This document shows positions 4,309 through 59,083 of a stretch of 64,000 bases of DNA, one piece after another. Below the pieces are notes generated by a model. That model ran no database searches. It was not told the origin of the DNA and saw nothing but the letters and a program-made list of their open reading frames with translations. The position numbers and the translations under genes are program-made. How positions within the stretch are numbered: position 1 is the stretch's first letter; the number at the start of each line of letters is the position of its first letter. The stretch is from NCBI RefSeq assembly GCF_056746865.1, contig NZ_CM163382.1; one strand, written 5' to 3'.

Positions 4309-4510
<202 letters not shown>

Positions 4511-16476: not shown

Positions 16477-16561
16477 GCCGAAGTGGCGAAATCGGTAGAC
16501 GCAGTTGATTCAAAATCAACCGTAGAAATACGTGCCGGTTCGAGTCCGGCCTTCGGCACCA
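16477..16561 (+). tRNA. leuX: tRNA-Leu (anticodon CAA), 85 nt with encoded CCA
   Basis: GCCGAAGTGGCGAAATCGGTAGACGC...CGGTTCGAGTCCGGCCTTCGGCACCA; anticodon loop TTCAAAA; long variable arm typical of tRNA-Leu. Confidence 0.95.
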
Positions 16562-50238: not shown

Positions 50239-50815
50239 GATAACGGTTCATGTATCCCCTGAGCTGACAGTGTACCGGGTATATTAAGCGTAACCGACAG
50301 GTTCTCCTTCATACCATATTAAATTTTTCCAGGTATTGCCGCTGCCTTATTTCGTCCCATACAGGAAAACTCGTCTGGGTTTCTGACAAATACGCGAAAC
50401 TCACAGCCCCTCAATATCAACCACACGCTGTAAGCCGGTAATACCTGAAAATCAGCCTATTACCGCCCGCGCCTCCGTTACCGAACGCTCAGGTGACCAG
50501 ACTGAAGCCCTGCACGCACTCGTAAAGTTTGCGGTCAGTTCCGTCAGTCGGTGGGCAACCGCAGAGTTACGGGCTTCCAGGTCCACAGGAGTGAGTCTAT
50601 AACGCGTGTGAAAAATCATTTTTTCTGGCGTTGACAGAACACATTACAGGCTGCCACTTACCCGGTGTCCCGCAATACAGCCTTAGTGTTCCGTTATCGG
50701 GGATCCGGACGCACCGCAACAACCGGGGAAGTATTTCTGGTTTAGAGCTGTGTCAAGAGGGATTTCTCAGCCCCTCACTCACCGGCTCAGTCTCAGAGCA
50801 GGAGTGGATTTGCCC

Positions 50816-51721
50816 CTATATTTCCAGACACCTGTTATCACTTAACCCATTACTGGCCCGCTGCCGTAGATATTCCCGTGGCGAGCGATAACCCAGTGCA
50901 CTATGCGGATGCCATTCGTTATAATGCTCGAACGCCTCTGCAAGGTTCTTTGCTGCCGTTAACCCGTCTGGTTTAGGCATGATACTGATGTAGTCACGCT
51001 TTATCGTTTTCACGAAGCTCTCTGCTATGCCGTTACTCTCCGGACTCCGCACCGCCGTGTTCTTCGGTTCAAGCCCCAACATCCGGGCAAACTGCCGTGT
51101 TTCATTAGCCCGGTAGCATGAACCATTATCCGTCAGCCACTCTACTGGAGACGCCGGAAGCTCGTTGCCGAAGCGGCGTTCCACCGCTCCCAGCATTACG
51201 TCCTGTACTGTTTCACTGTCGAAGCCGCCCGTAGTGACTGCCCAGTGCAGTGCCTCACGGTCACAGCAGTCCAGCGCGAACGTGACTCGCAGTTTTTCTC
51301 CGTTATCACAGCGGAACTCGAACCCGTCAGAGCACCATCGTTGATTGCTTTCTTTCACGGCCACTTTGCCAGTATGTGCCCGTTTCGATGGCGGTACAGC
51401 GGTTTTTCGCTCAAGCAACAGCGCATTCTGGCGCATGATCCGGTAAACACGTTTGGCATTGATCGCAGGCATACCATCAAGTTCGGCCTGTCTGCGAAGC
51501 AGCGCCCATACCCGACGATAACCATACGTGGGCAGCTCTCCGATAACATGGTGTATACGGAGAAGCACATCCGTATCATCTGAGTGACGGCTGCGGCGAC
51601 CATCTTTCCAGTCATCGGTTCGTCTGAGAATGACGTGCAACTGCGCACGCGACACCCGGAGACAACGGCTGACTAAGCTTACTCCCCATCCCCGGGCAAT
51701 AAGGGCGCGTGCGCTATCCAC
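50816..51721 (-). CDS. insD: IS2 transposase InsD (orfB)
   Basis: 301-aa [33 protein letters not shown]... Confidence 0.9.
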
Positions 51722-52044
51722 TTTTTTGCACGCCCGTATTCAACGGCTTCTTTAAGGAGTTCATTTTCCATCGTTTTTTTGCCGAGCAGGCGCTGGAGTT
51801 CTTTAATCTGCTTCATGGCAGCAGCAAGTTCAGAGGCAGGAACGACCTGCTCTCCTGCGGCCACAGCAGTAAGACTTCCCTCCTGGTATTGCTTGCGCCA
51901 GAGAAATAACTGGCTGGCTGCCACACCGTGTTGCCGGGCAACAAGGGAGACCGTCATTCCCGGTTCAAAACTCTGCTGAACAATAGCGATCTTTTCCTGT
52001 GTAGTACGCCGTCTGCGTTTCTCCGGTCCTAAGACATCAATCAT
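51679..52044 (-). CDS. insC: IS2 InsC (orfA)
   Basis: 121-aa product from [41 protein letters not shown]... Confidence 0.85.
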
Positions 52045-52696
52045 CTGCTCTCCAATGACTAGTCTAAAAACTAGTATTAAGACTATCACTTATTTAAGTG
52101 ATATTGGTTGTCTGGAGATTCAGGGGGCCAGTCTAGGAGCATTAATACGCTCAGTTCATGTCTTATACAGGAATGGGCACAGGGGGAGCTGGCGTGTCAC
52201 TGCTGATTTTACGCATCAGCGTTCATGTATTTGCACTCTGATACAGAATGCTTCACAGCGCTCTGTTACCGGAGAGATTTACTCTCTTAGCTTACTCTGG
52301 CAAATCCTTTACGTTACTCTCTGATGACTTCTTATATTTATAATACCAATCAGACAGCCTTATCCCATCGGTGATATCAGTCTCCTCCTCGCCAGGAACG
52401 GGCTGACTCACTGTAACCACCTCCGAAAACAACTCTGCAATTATCAGAACGCTAGTTTTCCCCTTGTCTCACGAAAGTCCTCCCTCCTTTATCGCGCGTG
52501 CGTGCGGAAGCATCTTTTCGCAACAACCCCCCGGGATTCCGCTACGGCTCTGCCATCGCAATCCCCCCGTTTATCTCCGGACAGCCACATTCCCGATTAT
52601 TTTTTACGTTTCTCCCCGGTTGTTATGCCAGTGAAGGTGGCGCGCTGTTTTCATGACCACACCGGCTGGTTTAACAACATCCGGAGGAACATTCTC

Positions 52697-52870
52697 ATGG
52701 CTACCCCTGTTTCGCTGATGGATGACCAGATGGTCGACATGGCGTTTATCACTCAACTTACCGGCTTAACCGATAAGTGGTTTTACAAACTCATCAAAGA
52801 TGGGGGCTTTCCTGCCCCCATCAAAATGGGGCGCAGCTCCCGCTGGCTGAAAAGTGAAGTGGAAGCCTGG
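52697..52870 (+). CDS. AlpA-family (P4 Vis-like) phage regulatory protein, 3' end interrupted by IS
   Basis: MATPVSLMDDQMVDMAFITQLTGLTDKWFYKLIKDGGFPAPIKMGRSSRWLKSEVEAW; reads into the IS terminus at 52871. Confidence 0.65.
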
Positions 52871-54168
<1,298 letters not shown>

Positions 54169-54243
54169 TGACCGTTATCCGTTCACCCGCAGCAGACGTA
54201 ATCTCCGGCCTGCCGGCGGCATTCTGCTGCCTGTTATATCCCC

Positions 54244-54861
54244 GTGAGGAATATGAAAATGAAACAACAGTATCAGACCCGCTACGAATGGCTCCACGAA
54301 AGCTACCAGAAATGGCTGACCGGCTTCACCCGGCACGCCGTATCCTGGGGCGTGTGTCATCCGAATATCTACTACTTCCATAATCTGACGCCCGGTTGGG
54401 TGTCATTCAATGGTGAAAAACCGGAGATTGCCATCGTACCCCAGAGCCTGCACCGGCTGATTTATGGCCCTGACAAACGGGCCACACCGCCCCTGGATGA
54501 TGATCTGATAGTGAATTTATGCACCAGTGAACATCTGCTGGTTCATCATCCGATGCTGGAAGGCATTCTCCTGTCTGAATGTGAACGTCTGAGGCAGCGT
54601 TCTCTGGCAAATAAACTGATCAGCCTCTTCCGTCAGTTTGGTGGCACGGAGTTGCGCCTCAAACTGGTCTGGCTTTGCTGGCTTGATTTAATGACCGGAA
54701 ACTGCCTTGACGACTGGACGGAGAATCTGAAACGGAAATCAGAAAAAGAGCTGGAGGAATGGATCATCAACCGTCAGAAGCAGAGCGCAGCACTGACGGA
54801 TCTGATGGATCAGTACGTGCTCCTGTCATACCGCACAACGGTTGACGATAAGCGCACCTGA
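54244..54861 (+). CDS. Hypothetical protein (205 aa)
   Basis: Intact ORF downstream of the alpA-like gene; no recognisable motif. Confidence 0.55.
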   Translation: MRNMKMKQQYQTRYEWLHESYQKWLTGFTRHAVSWGVCHPNIYYFHNLTPGWVSFNGEKPEIAIVPQSLHRLIYGPDKRATPPLDDDLIVNLCTSEHLLVHHPMLEGILLSECERLRQRSLANKLISLFRQFGGTELRLKLVWLCWLDLMTGNCLDDWTENLKRKSEKELEEWIINRQKQSAALTDLMDQYVLLSYRTTVDDKRT

Positions 54862-55083
54862 TGCCAGTTGTTTCAGGGAAGCTGGTATCCGGGCAGGGTG
54901 CCAGGGCTGACTGAACGGCCTGTCTGCCTGCCGTTTCGCTCTCCGTGCGTTCTGTCACACGCTGCACCTGAACGCCGGACTGCGGGCACGCAGACAGGAA
55001 AGTCGCAGGCTGGAACTTCTGACCGGCGGGTATCAGTTATATGCCTGTTGATTCATCACCACCACGCAGCTCCTGAGCTTTAG

Positions 55084-55123
55084 TTCATCACCGATATTCA
55101 TACATCTGAATATCGGTGATGAA
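55084..55123. repeat. Perfect inverted repeat, 17-bp arms with 6-bp spacer
   Basis: TTCATCACCGATATTCA tacatc TGAATATCGGTGATGAA in the convergent intergenic region. Confidence 0.9.
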
Positions 55124-55182
55124 ATCCCCATAATAATCAATCATCTAAGTCTGAAGCATAATGGAGAAAAACTGCTCACCGG

Positions 55183-56667
55183 TTACTTCGCTCTCAGCTT
55201 ATTGTAGTGATAACCCGAGGTAAAAATACCAGAGACATCAGACAACTTTAAACTGGCTATCTGGGGAAGCAGAACATACATGGTTTTTCCTTCCGGCACG
55301 ACAGAAAGCCTGAACTGAGATTCAAGAATGTTCAGCAATGCGTTCAGTTTTTTCCTGTTTCTGAACCGGCCCGGGCCACACTGGAGAATATAATTTTTCC
55401 TGACACGGGGCGGGCATTCTCCGCGGCACTCCTCAATGAGCCAGTCGAACAGCTCCTCGGCGTCCTTCTGCTGCAGTTCAGATTCATCAGGTAACGCAAA
55501 TAATTTTTTATATTCATCTGTGTACCACGAACTTATTACGACAGCAGACGTCATGATATCGGCAGAGATTTTCCCTTCACCATAGCTGAAATACTGAAAT
55601 AACGCTGCAATTCTTGCAATGTTTTCTGTTTTTTTTGAAACATGTCCCCGAAACGGGCTTAAGGGTCCGGAAGGGGATAAATCCTGCTCCAGAACATTAT
55701 AGTGCTCAATAAATATTTTTTGCGCTTCAGGCGAAAAATGCAGACAATACCGTTCATCCTCACTGGATTTTTCAATACTGCCTCTGGCCAGTTCCATTAA
55801 TCGTTCATGAAATGCCGTTAATGATCCTCCCGGAATCACAGCTCCGTTAATAAAGCGTTTCCCCTGCGTGGTTGCAGGTTTACTGATAAGACAACGGGCA
55901 AGAAAACCACTGTCCCTGGCAACAGAACCTTTTCGCTCCATATATCGGTCAAAAAGACCGGGTTGCACCATGAGGGATAACGTCATTCTGGCATTTTCAA
56001 TCATCTGTTCGGGTTCATTCTTTCTGTCCACAGACAATACAGAGCCATCCCACATTTTGTTAATAAAAGGCAACTCAGACAGGGTATATCCATCAAATAT
56101 AATACCGGCTTCATCTGACATAATACCAACTGAACGCCATTTACCACAAAGCTGATTCTTAATTGCCGCAGTCGTGGCATCATTAAAAATGAATTTATAC
56201 CTCACAGGTTCTTCCGCACTGTTTTTCTGAAGTACTTCCAGTTGTCTGAGGGTTTCTGACTCATCCGCGCCTTTGCGGAGTTCTTTATTCAGTTTTGACA
56301 ACAATGCTTTTTTCTGAGCCTTTAAAAGCTCTTCCTTGTTTTTCCAGACAGCCAGTTCACTTTTGTATCTGGAATATAACTGCATCTCCTGCTGGTACAG
56401 GGGCTTCATTAATAATTTGTCCACTGCGGTTTTTCGTTCTCCGGACTCGGCAAGCGTCAGGAAAAAAAGAGAGACCGGCCCCCGCAGTGTATTCAGTCTG
56501 CAGACATCAATCAGATTCTGGCAGACAAGTGAAACAGCGCCCAGGGCAGACGCTGCCACAAGCCCAAGGGGAGCCTGCGTAATTTGCTGAGCTTCAATAA
56601 CGGCATCACGAATGAGTGGAGGCAGCGAACTCAGGGGAAACTCATCACAAGGCTGACCGAATGACAT
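55183..56667 (-). CDS. Hypothetical protein (about 494 aa), possibly DUF3987/YfjI-like
   Basis: Long intact ORF; start taken at MSFGQPCDEFPLSSLPPLIRDA; family assignment is recollection only. Confidence 0.45.
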   Translation of the reverse strand: MSFGQPCDEFPLSSLPPLIRDAVIEAQQITQAPLGLVAASALGAVSLVCQNLIDVCRLNTLRGPVSLFFLTLAESGERKTAVDKLLMKPLYQQEMQLYSRYKSELAVWKNKEELLKAQKKALLSKLNKELRKGADESETLRQLEVLQKNSAEEPVRYKFIFNDATTAAIKNQLCGKWRSVGIMSDEAGIIFDGYTLSELPFINKMWDGSVLSVDRKNEPEQMIENARMTLSLMVQPGLFDRYMERKGSVARDSGFLARCLISKPATTQGKRFINGAVIPGGSLTAFHERLMELARGSIEKSSEDERYCLHFSPEAQKIFIEHYNVLEQDLSPSGPLSPFRGHVSKKTENIARIAALFQYFSYGEGKISADIMTSAVVISSWYTDEYKKLFALPDESELQQKDAEELFDWLIEECRGECPPRVRKNYILQCGPGRFRNRKKLNALLNILESQFRLSVVPEGKTMYVLLPQIASLKLSDVSGIFTSGYHYNKLRAK

Positions 56668-57897
56668 AGTAACCTCACTATACACAGATATAAAAGCACT
56701 GCAATTCTGGCTATTAATAGCAAAAATAGCAGTCAAATCAATATGAGGTAAAATTTTTTGTTGATTTAATGGTTAAATAATAACCACAGTGTATTTTGCT
56801 GCTGAAGAAAGACAAAATGAATCTGTGTGTCCCCTCCTTCCCTTCGGAGCACATCCACTATTCAAATTTTACACAACCACGTACGAACAAAAAGCATCAT
56901 CCCGGGTATTGCAGATACCGGTTTCCTGCCGGGAAGAATCATAAACAGAACACCGGGAATAACGCCTTCAGGAATCACCCCCCCTCCTGAAGAAGAATAA
57001 AATAAAGAAGACTACAGTTCCTGCACTGAATGCTGAGTACAATATTTTATGGACAGGATGACATTTTTATAAATAACAAAAACCATTTAATACTGATACA
57101 TCAATAAAATACTTCTTCCCTGCTGACACAGATAAAATGCACCATTTTTTCTTCAAATACTTCTGTATAATCGCCAGCCAATGATGAGAATGGATTAAAA
57201 TAACACTTCTTCGACAAACACAAAAACAGCCTTCATTTTACATCATCATCCAGTTTCAGTTAACCCCGGACGAGCGACAGTGTTTCAGTACAGGAATTAA
57301 AAGCCAGCTTTTGCTCAGTAAAACACACTCAACTAATAATATCTCAGCAGATATTATCCTGACCAGGACACCTCACATTACTGAATTCTCTTCCGACAGT
57401 ATCACTGCACAAATAAAAAAGAACGGGATAAATATTCAGACCGGAAGAATGGTGTCACAAAAGCATTTAATCATTACGCATGACCAGGAAGGGAAACACT
57501 TAACCACATGGTATCAACAGATATCATTACGTGTGCACTCTTATAAAAAACACACAGAAGAAGTAAGATAATTATAAACGTAAATTTAATATCTCCCACT
57601 GACATCTCCCCCACAATACACTAAAAAATACTCACAGCAGTAAACACAGATACACCTGATAATCATACAGCCGATAAATATTTTCCCCTTTACGGAGAAA
57701 TCAGCCTGCTGTTTAACAATAACGGCGTATTTTCATGGAAGGAGATCACCCAGTAACGGATAAGTCCTGATCTCCTTCATGTTAATACGCAACAATCCCA
57801 TCGATTCAAAACAATTTCAGACAGATATTATCTCCGTGAATCCCCCGCCACCTTTCCGGTGCGCGGGGTTTTGTCTTTTTTCACCGGGAATACATGT

Positions 57898-58770
57898 ATG
57901 AATCCGTCTGATGCCATTGAGGCAATTGAAAAACCGCTCTCCTCCCTGCCTTACTCACTTTCCCGTCACATCCTGGAACATCTGCGCAAACTCACCAGTC
58001 ACGAACCCGTGATTGGCATTATGGGTAAAAGCGGGGCCGGTAAATCCTCACTCTGTAATGCACTGTTTCAGGGGGAGGTCACCCCGGTCAGTGATGTTCA
58101 CGCCGGCACCCGGGAAGTGCGGCGCTTCCGTCTGAGTGGCCACGGTCACAGCATGGTTATCACTGACCTGCCCGGGGTGGGCGAGAGCCGGGACAGGGAT
58201 GCAGAGTATGAAGCCCTGTACCGTGACATTCTGCCCGAACTGGACCTGGTGCTGTGGCTGATTAAAGCCGATGACCGCGCCCTGTCTGTGGATGAGTATT
58301 TCTGGCGACACATCCTGCACCGGGGACATCAGCAGGTGCTGTTTGTGGTGACGCAGGCCGACAAAACGGAGCCCTGCCATGAATGGGATATGGCCGGCAT
58401 TCAGCCTTCTCCCGCACAGGCACAGAACATTCGGGAGAAAACGGAGGCGGTATTCCGTCTGTTCCGGCCCGTACATCCGGTTGTTGCCGTATCGGCCCGC
58501 ACCGGCTGGGAACTGGATACGCTGGTCAGTGCGCTAATGACAGCACTTCCCGACCATGCCGCCAGTCCCCTGATGACCCGCCTGCAGGACGAGCTGCGCA
58601 CGGAATCTGTCCGCGCTCAGGCCCGTGAACAGTTTACCGGTGCGGTGGACCGGATATTTGACACGGCGGAGAGCGTCTGTGTTGCCTCTGTTGCCCGTAC
58701 GGTTCTGCGTGCCGTCCGTGACACGGTGGTCTCTGTTGCCCGCGCTGTATGGAACTGGATTTTCTTCTGA
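57898..58770 (+). CDS. YeeP/YfjP/YkfA-family GTPase (50S ribosome-binding GTPase fold)
   Basis: G1 motif GKSGAGKSS, G3-like DLPG; start at MNPSDAIEAIEK. Confidence 0.8.
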   Translation: MNPSDAIEAIEKPLSSLPYSLSRHILEHLRKLTSHEPVIGIMGKSGAGKSSLCNALFQGEVTPVSDVHAGTREVRRFRLSGHGHSMVITDLPGVGESRDRDAEYEALYRDILPELDLVLWLIKADDRALSVDEYFWRHILHRGHQQVLFVVTQADKTEPCHEWDMAGIQPSPAQAQNIREKTEAVFRLFRPVHPVVAVSARTGWELDTLVSALMTALPDHAASPLMTRLQDELRTESVRAQAREQFTGAVDRIFDTAESVCVASVARTVLRAVRDTVVSVARAVWNWIFF

Positions 58771-58884: not shown

Positions 58885-58928
58885 AAACGATCGATAAAAC
58901 AGGTATCGATCGTTGCTATCGATCGTTT
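58885..58928. promoter_or_regulatory. agn43 phase-variation switch: three GATC (Dam) sites in the expected OxyR-binding region
   Basis: GATC at 58889, 58908 and 58921 within AACGATCGATAAAACAGGTATCGATCGTTGCTATCGATCG. Confidence 0.7.
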
Positions 58929-59083
58929 ATAGTGGTTAATGGTCTGCGAAAAGGCAGCTGAATCTCTTCATCATGCAGAACGGAATTGCACACAACGGAC
59001 TGATACTTCTCTGGCGGATGAGAGAGGGGAAGCATTTATGTCCGGGAAAAACCACTTTATCTGAGCATGCTGTTTTGTACCTG

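Follow-up and report, generated by a model that had tools for sequence, protein, structure and literature searches.

A perfect 40-bp palindrome between converging genes of an Escherichia coli genomic island, a candidate stem-loop at transcript 3' ends

The locus

The palindrome reported here lies in horizontally acquired DNA, a genomic island of E. coli, within a stretch of 64 kb that was analysed as a whole (hereafter the window). It is found between the stop codons of two converging genes, 222 nt past the stop of an uncharacterised gene, called X here, and 59 nt from the stop of a yfjI-family gene on the opposite strand. An alpA-family HTH gene (Pfam Phage_AlpA) is located nearby, a GTPase gene and then the Ag43 gene follow beyond yfjI, as in strain 7/2, and a transcript of X would run into the palindrome. 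The window also contains, at position 16477, a tRNA-Leu(CAA) gene, which we take by its anticodon to be leuX of E. coli K-12. The features of the locus are:

54259..54861, plus strand: gene X, uncharacterised, 200 aa, downstream of alpA (RefSeq CDS in strain 7/2)
54862..55083, plus strand: non-coding, GC-rich, structured stretch of 222 nt from the stop of X to the palindrome
55084..55100: left arm, TTCATCACCGATATTCA, 17/17 complementary to the right arm
55101..55106: loop of 6 nt, TACATC on the plus and GAUGUA on the minus strand, identical across the aligned E. coli variants
55107..55123: right arm, TGAATATCGGTGATGAA; in variants G10'->A, G15'->A and one additional A
55124..55203, plus strand: C-rich, G-poor, AU-rich tract, candidate rut region (C/G = 1.82 over 80 nt)
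55183..56667, minus strand: yfjI-family gene, DUF3987 helicase-like (Pfam DUF3987, E=1.5e-95; phrog_2373, DNA helicase; RefSeq annotation)

No family could be assigned to the X protein in Pfam, NCBIfam, PHROGs or PDB sequences, and its AF2 model, which is confident (pTM 0.77), gave no significant fold match and contains no recognisable DNA-binding fold. X is conserved at about 197-200 aa and always comes after alpA. Homologs with ~62% identity occur in Klebsiella, Salmonella and Yersinia, where alpA and X are followed by an intergenic region of ~200 nt and then, in the same direction, by a Gp2-like gene or by cargo, which is BREX in Klebsiella and Dnd in Yersinia. Because alpA-X is located directly upstream of this BREX or Dnd cargo, X may belong to the backbone of a defence-carrying island family.

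The non-coding stretch between X and the palindrome includes an inverted repeat (54919-54932/54985-54998). Most of it, a segment of ~190 nt (54862-55050) with a G+C content of up to 66%, is non-coding and specific to this type of island; when folded jointly with the palindrome it reaches z = -5.6, and part of it recurs in a hybrid island of strain MS14384, joined there to another type of hairpin. At ~55031-55057 we found a remnant similar to the end of the coding sequence, on the 3' side, of the X gene of the sister island type represented by strain E302 (YQLYAC*, GTTATAYGCCTGTTGATTCAT), and the intergenic region is therefore a mosaic that points to recombination. A 71-aa ORF that ends right before the palindrome (54868-55083) is not a gene, since it is frameshifted in variant strains; it also has no Pfam match.

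Upstream of X the window differs from strain 7/2 by an insertion of 1258 bp (52871-54128, with a 3-bp overlap at the junction), which carries two overlapping minus-strand ORFs of 115 aa (53745-54092) and 348 aa (52879-53925), a layout that we take to be that of an IS3-family transposase, and which includes an Rfam match to the Hfq-binding RNA isrC (53938-54060, minus strand, 150 bits). The insertion interrupts the alpA-like gene 33 nt short of its stop codon and thereby cuts X off from the alpA promoter; because an IS element divides alpA upstream of X, plus-strand transcription may be altered in this window. Another insertion relative to strain 7/2 (50805-52134; 1330 bp, 5-bp junction overlap, overlapping minus-strand ORFs of 301 and 136 aa) seems to resemble IS2 in size and layout. 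On the far side of yfjI, an 11-bp palindrome (AACGATCGATA..TATCGATCGTT) at 58886-58930 is followed by a third GATC; the three GATC sites are located ~140-180 nt upstream of the Ag43 ORF (59067), an arrangement that looks to us like the Dam/OxyR phase-variation switch of agn43.

Structure of the palindrome

An earlier note, made from the letters of the sequence, had described a perfect 40-bp palindrome without a U-tract at 55084-55123. Inspection of the sequence and a repeat finder confirmed this structure: TTCATCACCGATATTCA-TACATC-TGAATATCGGTGATGAA, with arms of 17 nt that are 100% complementary (17/17) and a spacer of 6 nt. It is the longest perfect hairpin of the window, the runner-up having 12 bp, and 12 bp is also the maximum found in 30 block-shuffles of the window, so that its length greatly exceeds what chance would give. 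As RNA, the palindrome is predicted to fold at -25.4 kcal/mol on the plus and -26.2 kcal/mol on the minus strand, with z-scores of -8.3 and -7.3, respectively, against dinucleotide shuffles. The stem is AT-rich, with 6 of the 17 positions per arm being G or C (35% G+C).

There is no U-tract 3' of the palindrome on either strand (flanks AUCCCCAUAA on plus and CUAAAGCUCA on minus; immediate 3' flanks AUCCCCAU and CUAAAGCU, respectively), and a terminator scan of the intergenic region between X and yfjI, 54862-55183, returned no terminator; the palindrome is therefore not a canonical intrinsic terminator. No sigma-70-like promoter was found in this intergenic region either. Rfam covariance models gave no match at the palindrome at E<=1, and the isrC match mentioned above, within the IS element, is the sole one in 52000-58000. 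The REP-consensus sequences of the window (at ~4309-4488 and 8600) are unrelated to the palindrome, as the earlier note had also stated.

Copy number and distribution

Of 5426 complete E. coli genomes, 1178 carry the palindrome site, with one site per island copy and always in the same slot, and in 1161 of these 1178 carriers it is at least 99% identical. The two places per genome that the search reported most likely arise because a palindrome also matches itself on the reverse strand. No second copy of a palindrome arm exists within the window, and phage records contained no match to the palindrome. The only plasmid matches were three records of megabase size (1.4-4.9 Mb), which we take to be mislabelled chromosomes; the viral matches comprise one contig with the same island and two with chance matches inside coding sequence, and the palindrome core matched 67 metagenome contigs, 65 of them through the same locus and 2 by chance. 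Because it is single-copy and locus-specific, the palindrome is not a repeat family: the search for membership in a widespread intergenic family, which the earlier note had named as the result that would speak against a local role, was negative. A dispersed repeat or a REP family was likewise rejected, given one locus per island, no other copy in the window and no phage match.

Sequence variation and base pairing

Variants of the site come from a small clade with ~6% divergence from the window type. The common type has C-G at stem pair 8, strains A24, A41 and H10407 have U.G, and STEC1575 and UMNF18 have U-A, in which G10'->A in the right arm compensates for C8->T. This clade also shows a change of the outer pair 3 to C.A (G15'->A), which is a G.U pair only in minus-strand RNA, and the insertion of one A. 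The window and STEC1575 differ at 4 of 41 hairpin columns versus 17 of 320 flanking columns; the hairpin sequence is thus not conserved and diverges at least as fast as its flanks. Nevertheless, the predicted folding energy stays between -17 and -22 kcal/mol for all variants and for both strands, with the plus-strand stem being shortened to 14 bp.

The covariation concerns one stem pair in an alignment of 8 sequences (7 distinct), and a shuffle control was not significant (227/500); the chance of obtaining one compensating pair among three substitutions is roughly estimated at 0.03-0.06. Hairpin-templated mutation (quasipalindrome mutagenesis) can also yield compensatory changes without selection. 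As evidence for selection on pairing, the covariation read from these alignments is suggestive, not decisive. The clues to the strand conflict with each other, as U.G at pair 8 favours the plus strand and the C.A at pair 3 can pair, as G.U, only on the minus strand.

A 9-mer, TTCATCACC, forms the outer end of each palindrome arm and occurs a third time at 55052..55060 on the plus strand, 32 bp upstream of the left arm, so that the three copies follow each other at spacings of 32 bp and 31 bp. In the variant strains a change in copy 2 is accompanied by one in copy 3, so that both become different from copy 1, and it is therefore the pairing that is kept and not a shared binding motif. A reading of the three copies as iterons was rejected, as they are not co-conserved in the variants.

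The same slot in related islands

The sister island type (found in E302, 20KM2228 and several database contigs) encodes a YfjI that aligns with that of the window over 483 residues at 91% identity; the mismatches are mostly in the last ~30 of these residues, and the final ~11 residues of the protein do not align. The X protein of this type is only 36% identical to the X of the window. The intergenic region of this type measures 120 nt and contains, ~49 nt from the yfjI stop, a hairpin (CCGTCACCC..GGGTGACGG) that is unrelated in sequence to the palindrome, is also without a U-tract and is predicted to fold at -24 kcal/mol versus a shuffle mean of -13.6. The MS14384 hybrid combines a window-type X gene with the hairpin and the yfjI of the E302 type. 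Because of this combination we conclude that the hairpin type travels with the 3' flank of yfjI and not with X.

In Yersinia ruckeri, which has no converging yfjI at this place, a 13-bp perfect hairpin without a U-tract is located 58 nt past the stop of the X homolog (-25 kcal/mol versus a shuffle mean of -12). After this hairpin and upstream of the DndB gene (locus L103, 3594-3794) there are also several ACGTAA/TTACGT motifs (TCACGTAAAA, TCACGTATTACGTAAAATATGACGTAAC), which may be an operator or an iteron array.

A conserved hairpin was not found 3' of distant YfjI homologs (~50% identity; 16 loci in other genera), which showed only sporadic AT-rich palindromes, and none of these 16 loci has an X homolog nearby. 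YfjI relatives of intermediate similarity are all either of the E302 type or IS-interrupted. Some yfjI-family genes of E. coli are hit by IS elements: at one locus (L029, 3985-4047) an IS-like ORF (MTKNTRFSPEVRQRAV...) begins directly past the stop, and one protein-database entry (P0036) is an IS30-transposase/DUF3987 fusion product.

Composition downstream of the hairpins

Over the 80 nt that follow the palindrome, C/G amounts to 1.82 on the plus strand, which is the 96th percentile of all 80-nt windows, and to 0.87 on the minus strand; after the E302-type hairpin the corresponding values are 1.57 and 0.70. The first 59 nt of the tract at 55124..55203 are non-coding and the remainder is antisense to the 3' end of yfjI. 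Because an excess of C over G is expected anyway where the tract is antisense to coding sequence, the composition is supportive but confounded.

Discussion

The earlier note had offered three readings of the palindrome, namely a bidirectional RNA stem, a protein operator and a recombination site, of which we favour the first. Specifically, the palindrome is most likely an RNA stem-loop at the 3' ends of the converging alpA-X (plus) and yfjI (minus) transcription units that belongs to the class of 3' stem-loops without U-tract known from Rho-terminated transcripts, a reading to which we give an even chance. It has been described that the transcripts which Rho terminates in E. coli have precise ends at stable stem-loops without U-tracts, that C is mildly enriched over G downstream of such stem-loops, and that they shield RNA from PNPase and RNase II (Dar & Sorek 2018, PMC6061677). 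At the locus studied here, the position between converging 3' ends, the pairing that is kept despite sequence drift, the unrelated hairpin in the same slot of the sister island and the tract of C over G that follows all agree with an RNA stem.

By analogy with that class, RNA polymerase would read through the hairpin, Rho would load on the C-rich, G-poor RNA just downstream and terminate transcription, and the 3'-5' exonucleases PNPase and RNase II would then shorten the transcript as far as the stem base, and the stem would from then on protect the mRNA. From the features of the DNA we infer transcription of the site, the action of Rho, the position of the 3' end and its definition and protection by the stem. 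That the stem chiefly serves the alpA-X transcript is suggested by the U.G intermediate on the plus strand, the tract of C over G and the Yersinia hairpin after X, clues which are weak; as the palindrome is perfect, the yfjI mRNA would fold the same stem 59 nt past its own stop. Weighing against a stem-loop at RNA 3' ends are the AT-rich stem, its length of 17 bp, which exceeds that of most terminator-like stems, and the lack of a conserved hairpin at the distant YfjI loci.

The palindrome shares with the published stem-loops (PMC6061677) a stable stem-loop after the stop, the absence of a U-tract after and of an A-tract before it, and the excess of C over G downstream on the plus strand. It differs from them in being a perfect 17-bp, AT-rich palindrome that folds on both strands, and its 3' end and Rho dependence are putative. 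Like intrinsic or bidirectional terminators, it is a hairpin placed between converging genes and could face the transcript of either one. Unlike intrinsic terminators, it has no U-tract on either strand, and its stem has 35% G+C although the fold reaches about -25 kcal/mol; its outer arms run 5'-TT...AA-3', opposite to the order of A-tract and U-tract in bidirectional terminators, and its flanks are neither A- nor T-rich. As an intergenic palindrome able to block 3' exonucleases it also recalls the REP/BIME elements that stabilise 3' ends, from which it is set apart by being single-copy and locus-specific, without a REP consensus and without relatives elsewhere in E. coli genomes. It is also like sib/tI of phage lambda in being a stem-loop 3' of a mobile-element gene, where it could control the stability of the mRNA from a downstream site, a likeness of position only.

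A rather unlikely alternative is that the palindrome is a neutral by-product, i.e. that a fairly recent one-step inverted duplication, caused by template switching or a snap-back replication error, produced a 17-bp arm with a 6-nt spacer that is tolerated and has no function. The near-invariance of the site would then simply result from the young age of the island (at least 99% identity in 1161 of 1178 carriers), the hairpin is indeed no more conserved than its flanks, the additional copy of TTCATCACC 32 bp upstream suggests local copying, and the covariation is statistically weak and could, from general knowledge, be mimicked by hairpin-templated correction. A functionless duplication does not, however, lead one to expect that pairing survives in a clade of ~6% divergence through a two-step series from C-G via U.G to U-A, that unrelated hairpins are found in the slot of the sister island and after X in Yersinia, or that both E. 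coli hairpins are followed by a tract of C over G on the same strand.

As a special case of the RNA reading, the stem might act in retroregulation by RNase III: the duplex would be cleaved, the protection of the 3' end would be lost, and the yfjI or alpA-X mRNA would be destabilised, in the way that lambda sib acts on int. We consider this improbable. Such a role would suit a long and perfect stem without U-tract that lies 59 nt past the yfjI stop in a mobile-element module with an AlpA-family regulator, but the plus-strand stem of the variants has only 14 bp, and even 17 bp is short for an efficient RNase III substrate, which counts against cleavage by this enzyme.

A similarly low probability is assigned to a cis-acting site at the DNA level, where a hairpin or cruciform would serve as a replication origin or as a single-strand initiation, helicase-loading or oriT-like site for YfjI or for the inovirus-Gp2-like protein that the island encodes. 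The DUF3987 proteins of mobile elements are helicases with 5'-3' polarity (PMC11724360), and YfjI, besides being of this kind, matches a phage DNA-helicase PHROG; the palindrome is located directly 3' of yfjI, its centre is AT-rich, and the three 9-mers TTCATCACC follow each other in 32- and 31-bp steps. Yet YfjI is 91% identical between the island types while their hairpins are wholly unrelated, and copies 2 and 3 of TTCATCACC diverge jointly from copy 1. The repeat finder detected no iteron array or other direct repeats; the sequence does not qualify as a replication origin with an iteron array, as there are just three 9-mers, two of them in the palindrome arms, without co-conservation in the variants. 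A BLAST search of 72,556 plasmids with E up to 10 found nothing real that would indicate an oriT, in a search that covered nick motifs of about 12 nt or longer, and there was no plasmid or phage similarity even at E=10. In addition, positive supercoiling, which the twin-domain model would place between converging genes, disfavours cruciform extrusion. The flank of the E302-type hairpin, GTAAGTGTGCGG, may resemble a nick region of the RSF1010 type. The narrower proposal that the hairpin is a helicase-loading, single-strand initiation or origin-like site used by the adjacent YfjI upon activation of the alpA-X-yfjI island is less probable still. If it were true, the cryptic backbone present in about one fifth of complete E. 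coli genomes would be a replicating satellite-like element, and its origin hairpin would have been swapped together with the C-terminus of YfjI.

The perfect dyad symmetry and the AlpA-family HTH gene nearby could also suggest an operator to which a dimeric DNA-binding protein, for instance AlpA or X, would bind, but this is highly improbable: the palindrome lies between two 3' ends in an intergenic region without a promoter, its 40 bp are far above the typical operator size, the half-site is not conserved, the hairpin type is independent of X, as MS14384 pairs a window-type X with the other hairpin type, and X has neither a known family nor a recognisable DNA-binding fold. The operator consensus sequences of Fur, LexA, CRP, ArgR and Cra do not seem to fit the layout of the arms. 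A recombination site, finally, finds no support, as the palindrome is not located at an island boundary and has no further copies.

Conclusions

The palindrome is a real but ordinary kind of element and opens no new question. If it is indeed a stem-loop at RNA 3' ends, it would represent a clean, island-specific case of a stem-loop without U-tract that defines and protects transcript ends between converging genes in horizontally acquired DNA, and it would aid the annotation of 3' ends in the alpA-X-yfjI backbone that is carried by 1178 of 5426 complete E. coli genomes. Its practical value is that of a natural test case for Rho-dependent 3'-end formation, with three pairing states (C-G, U.G and U-A) at a single position.
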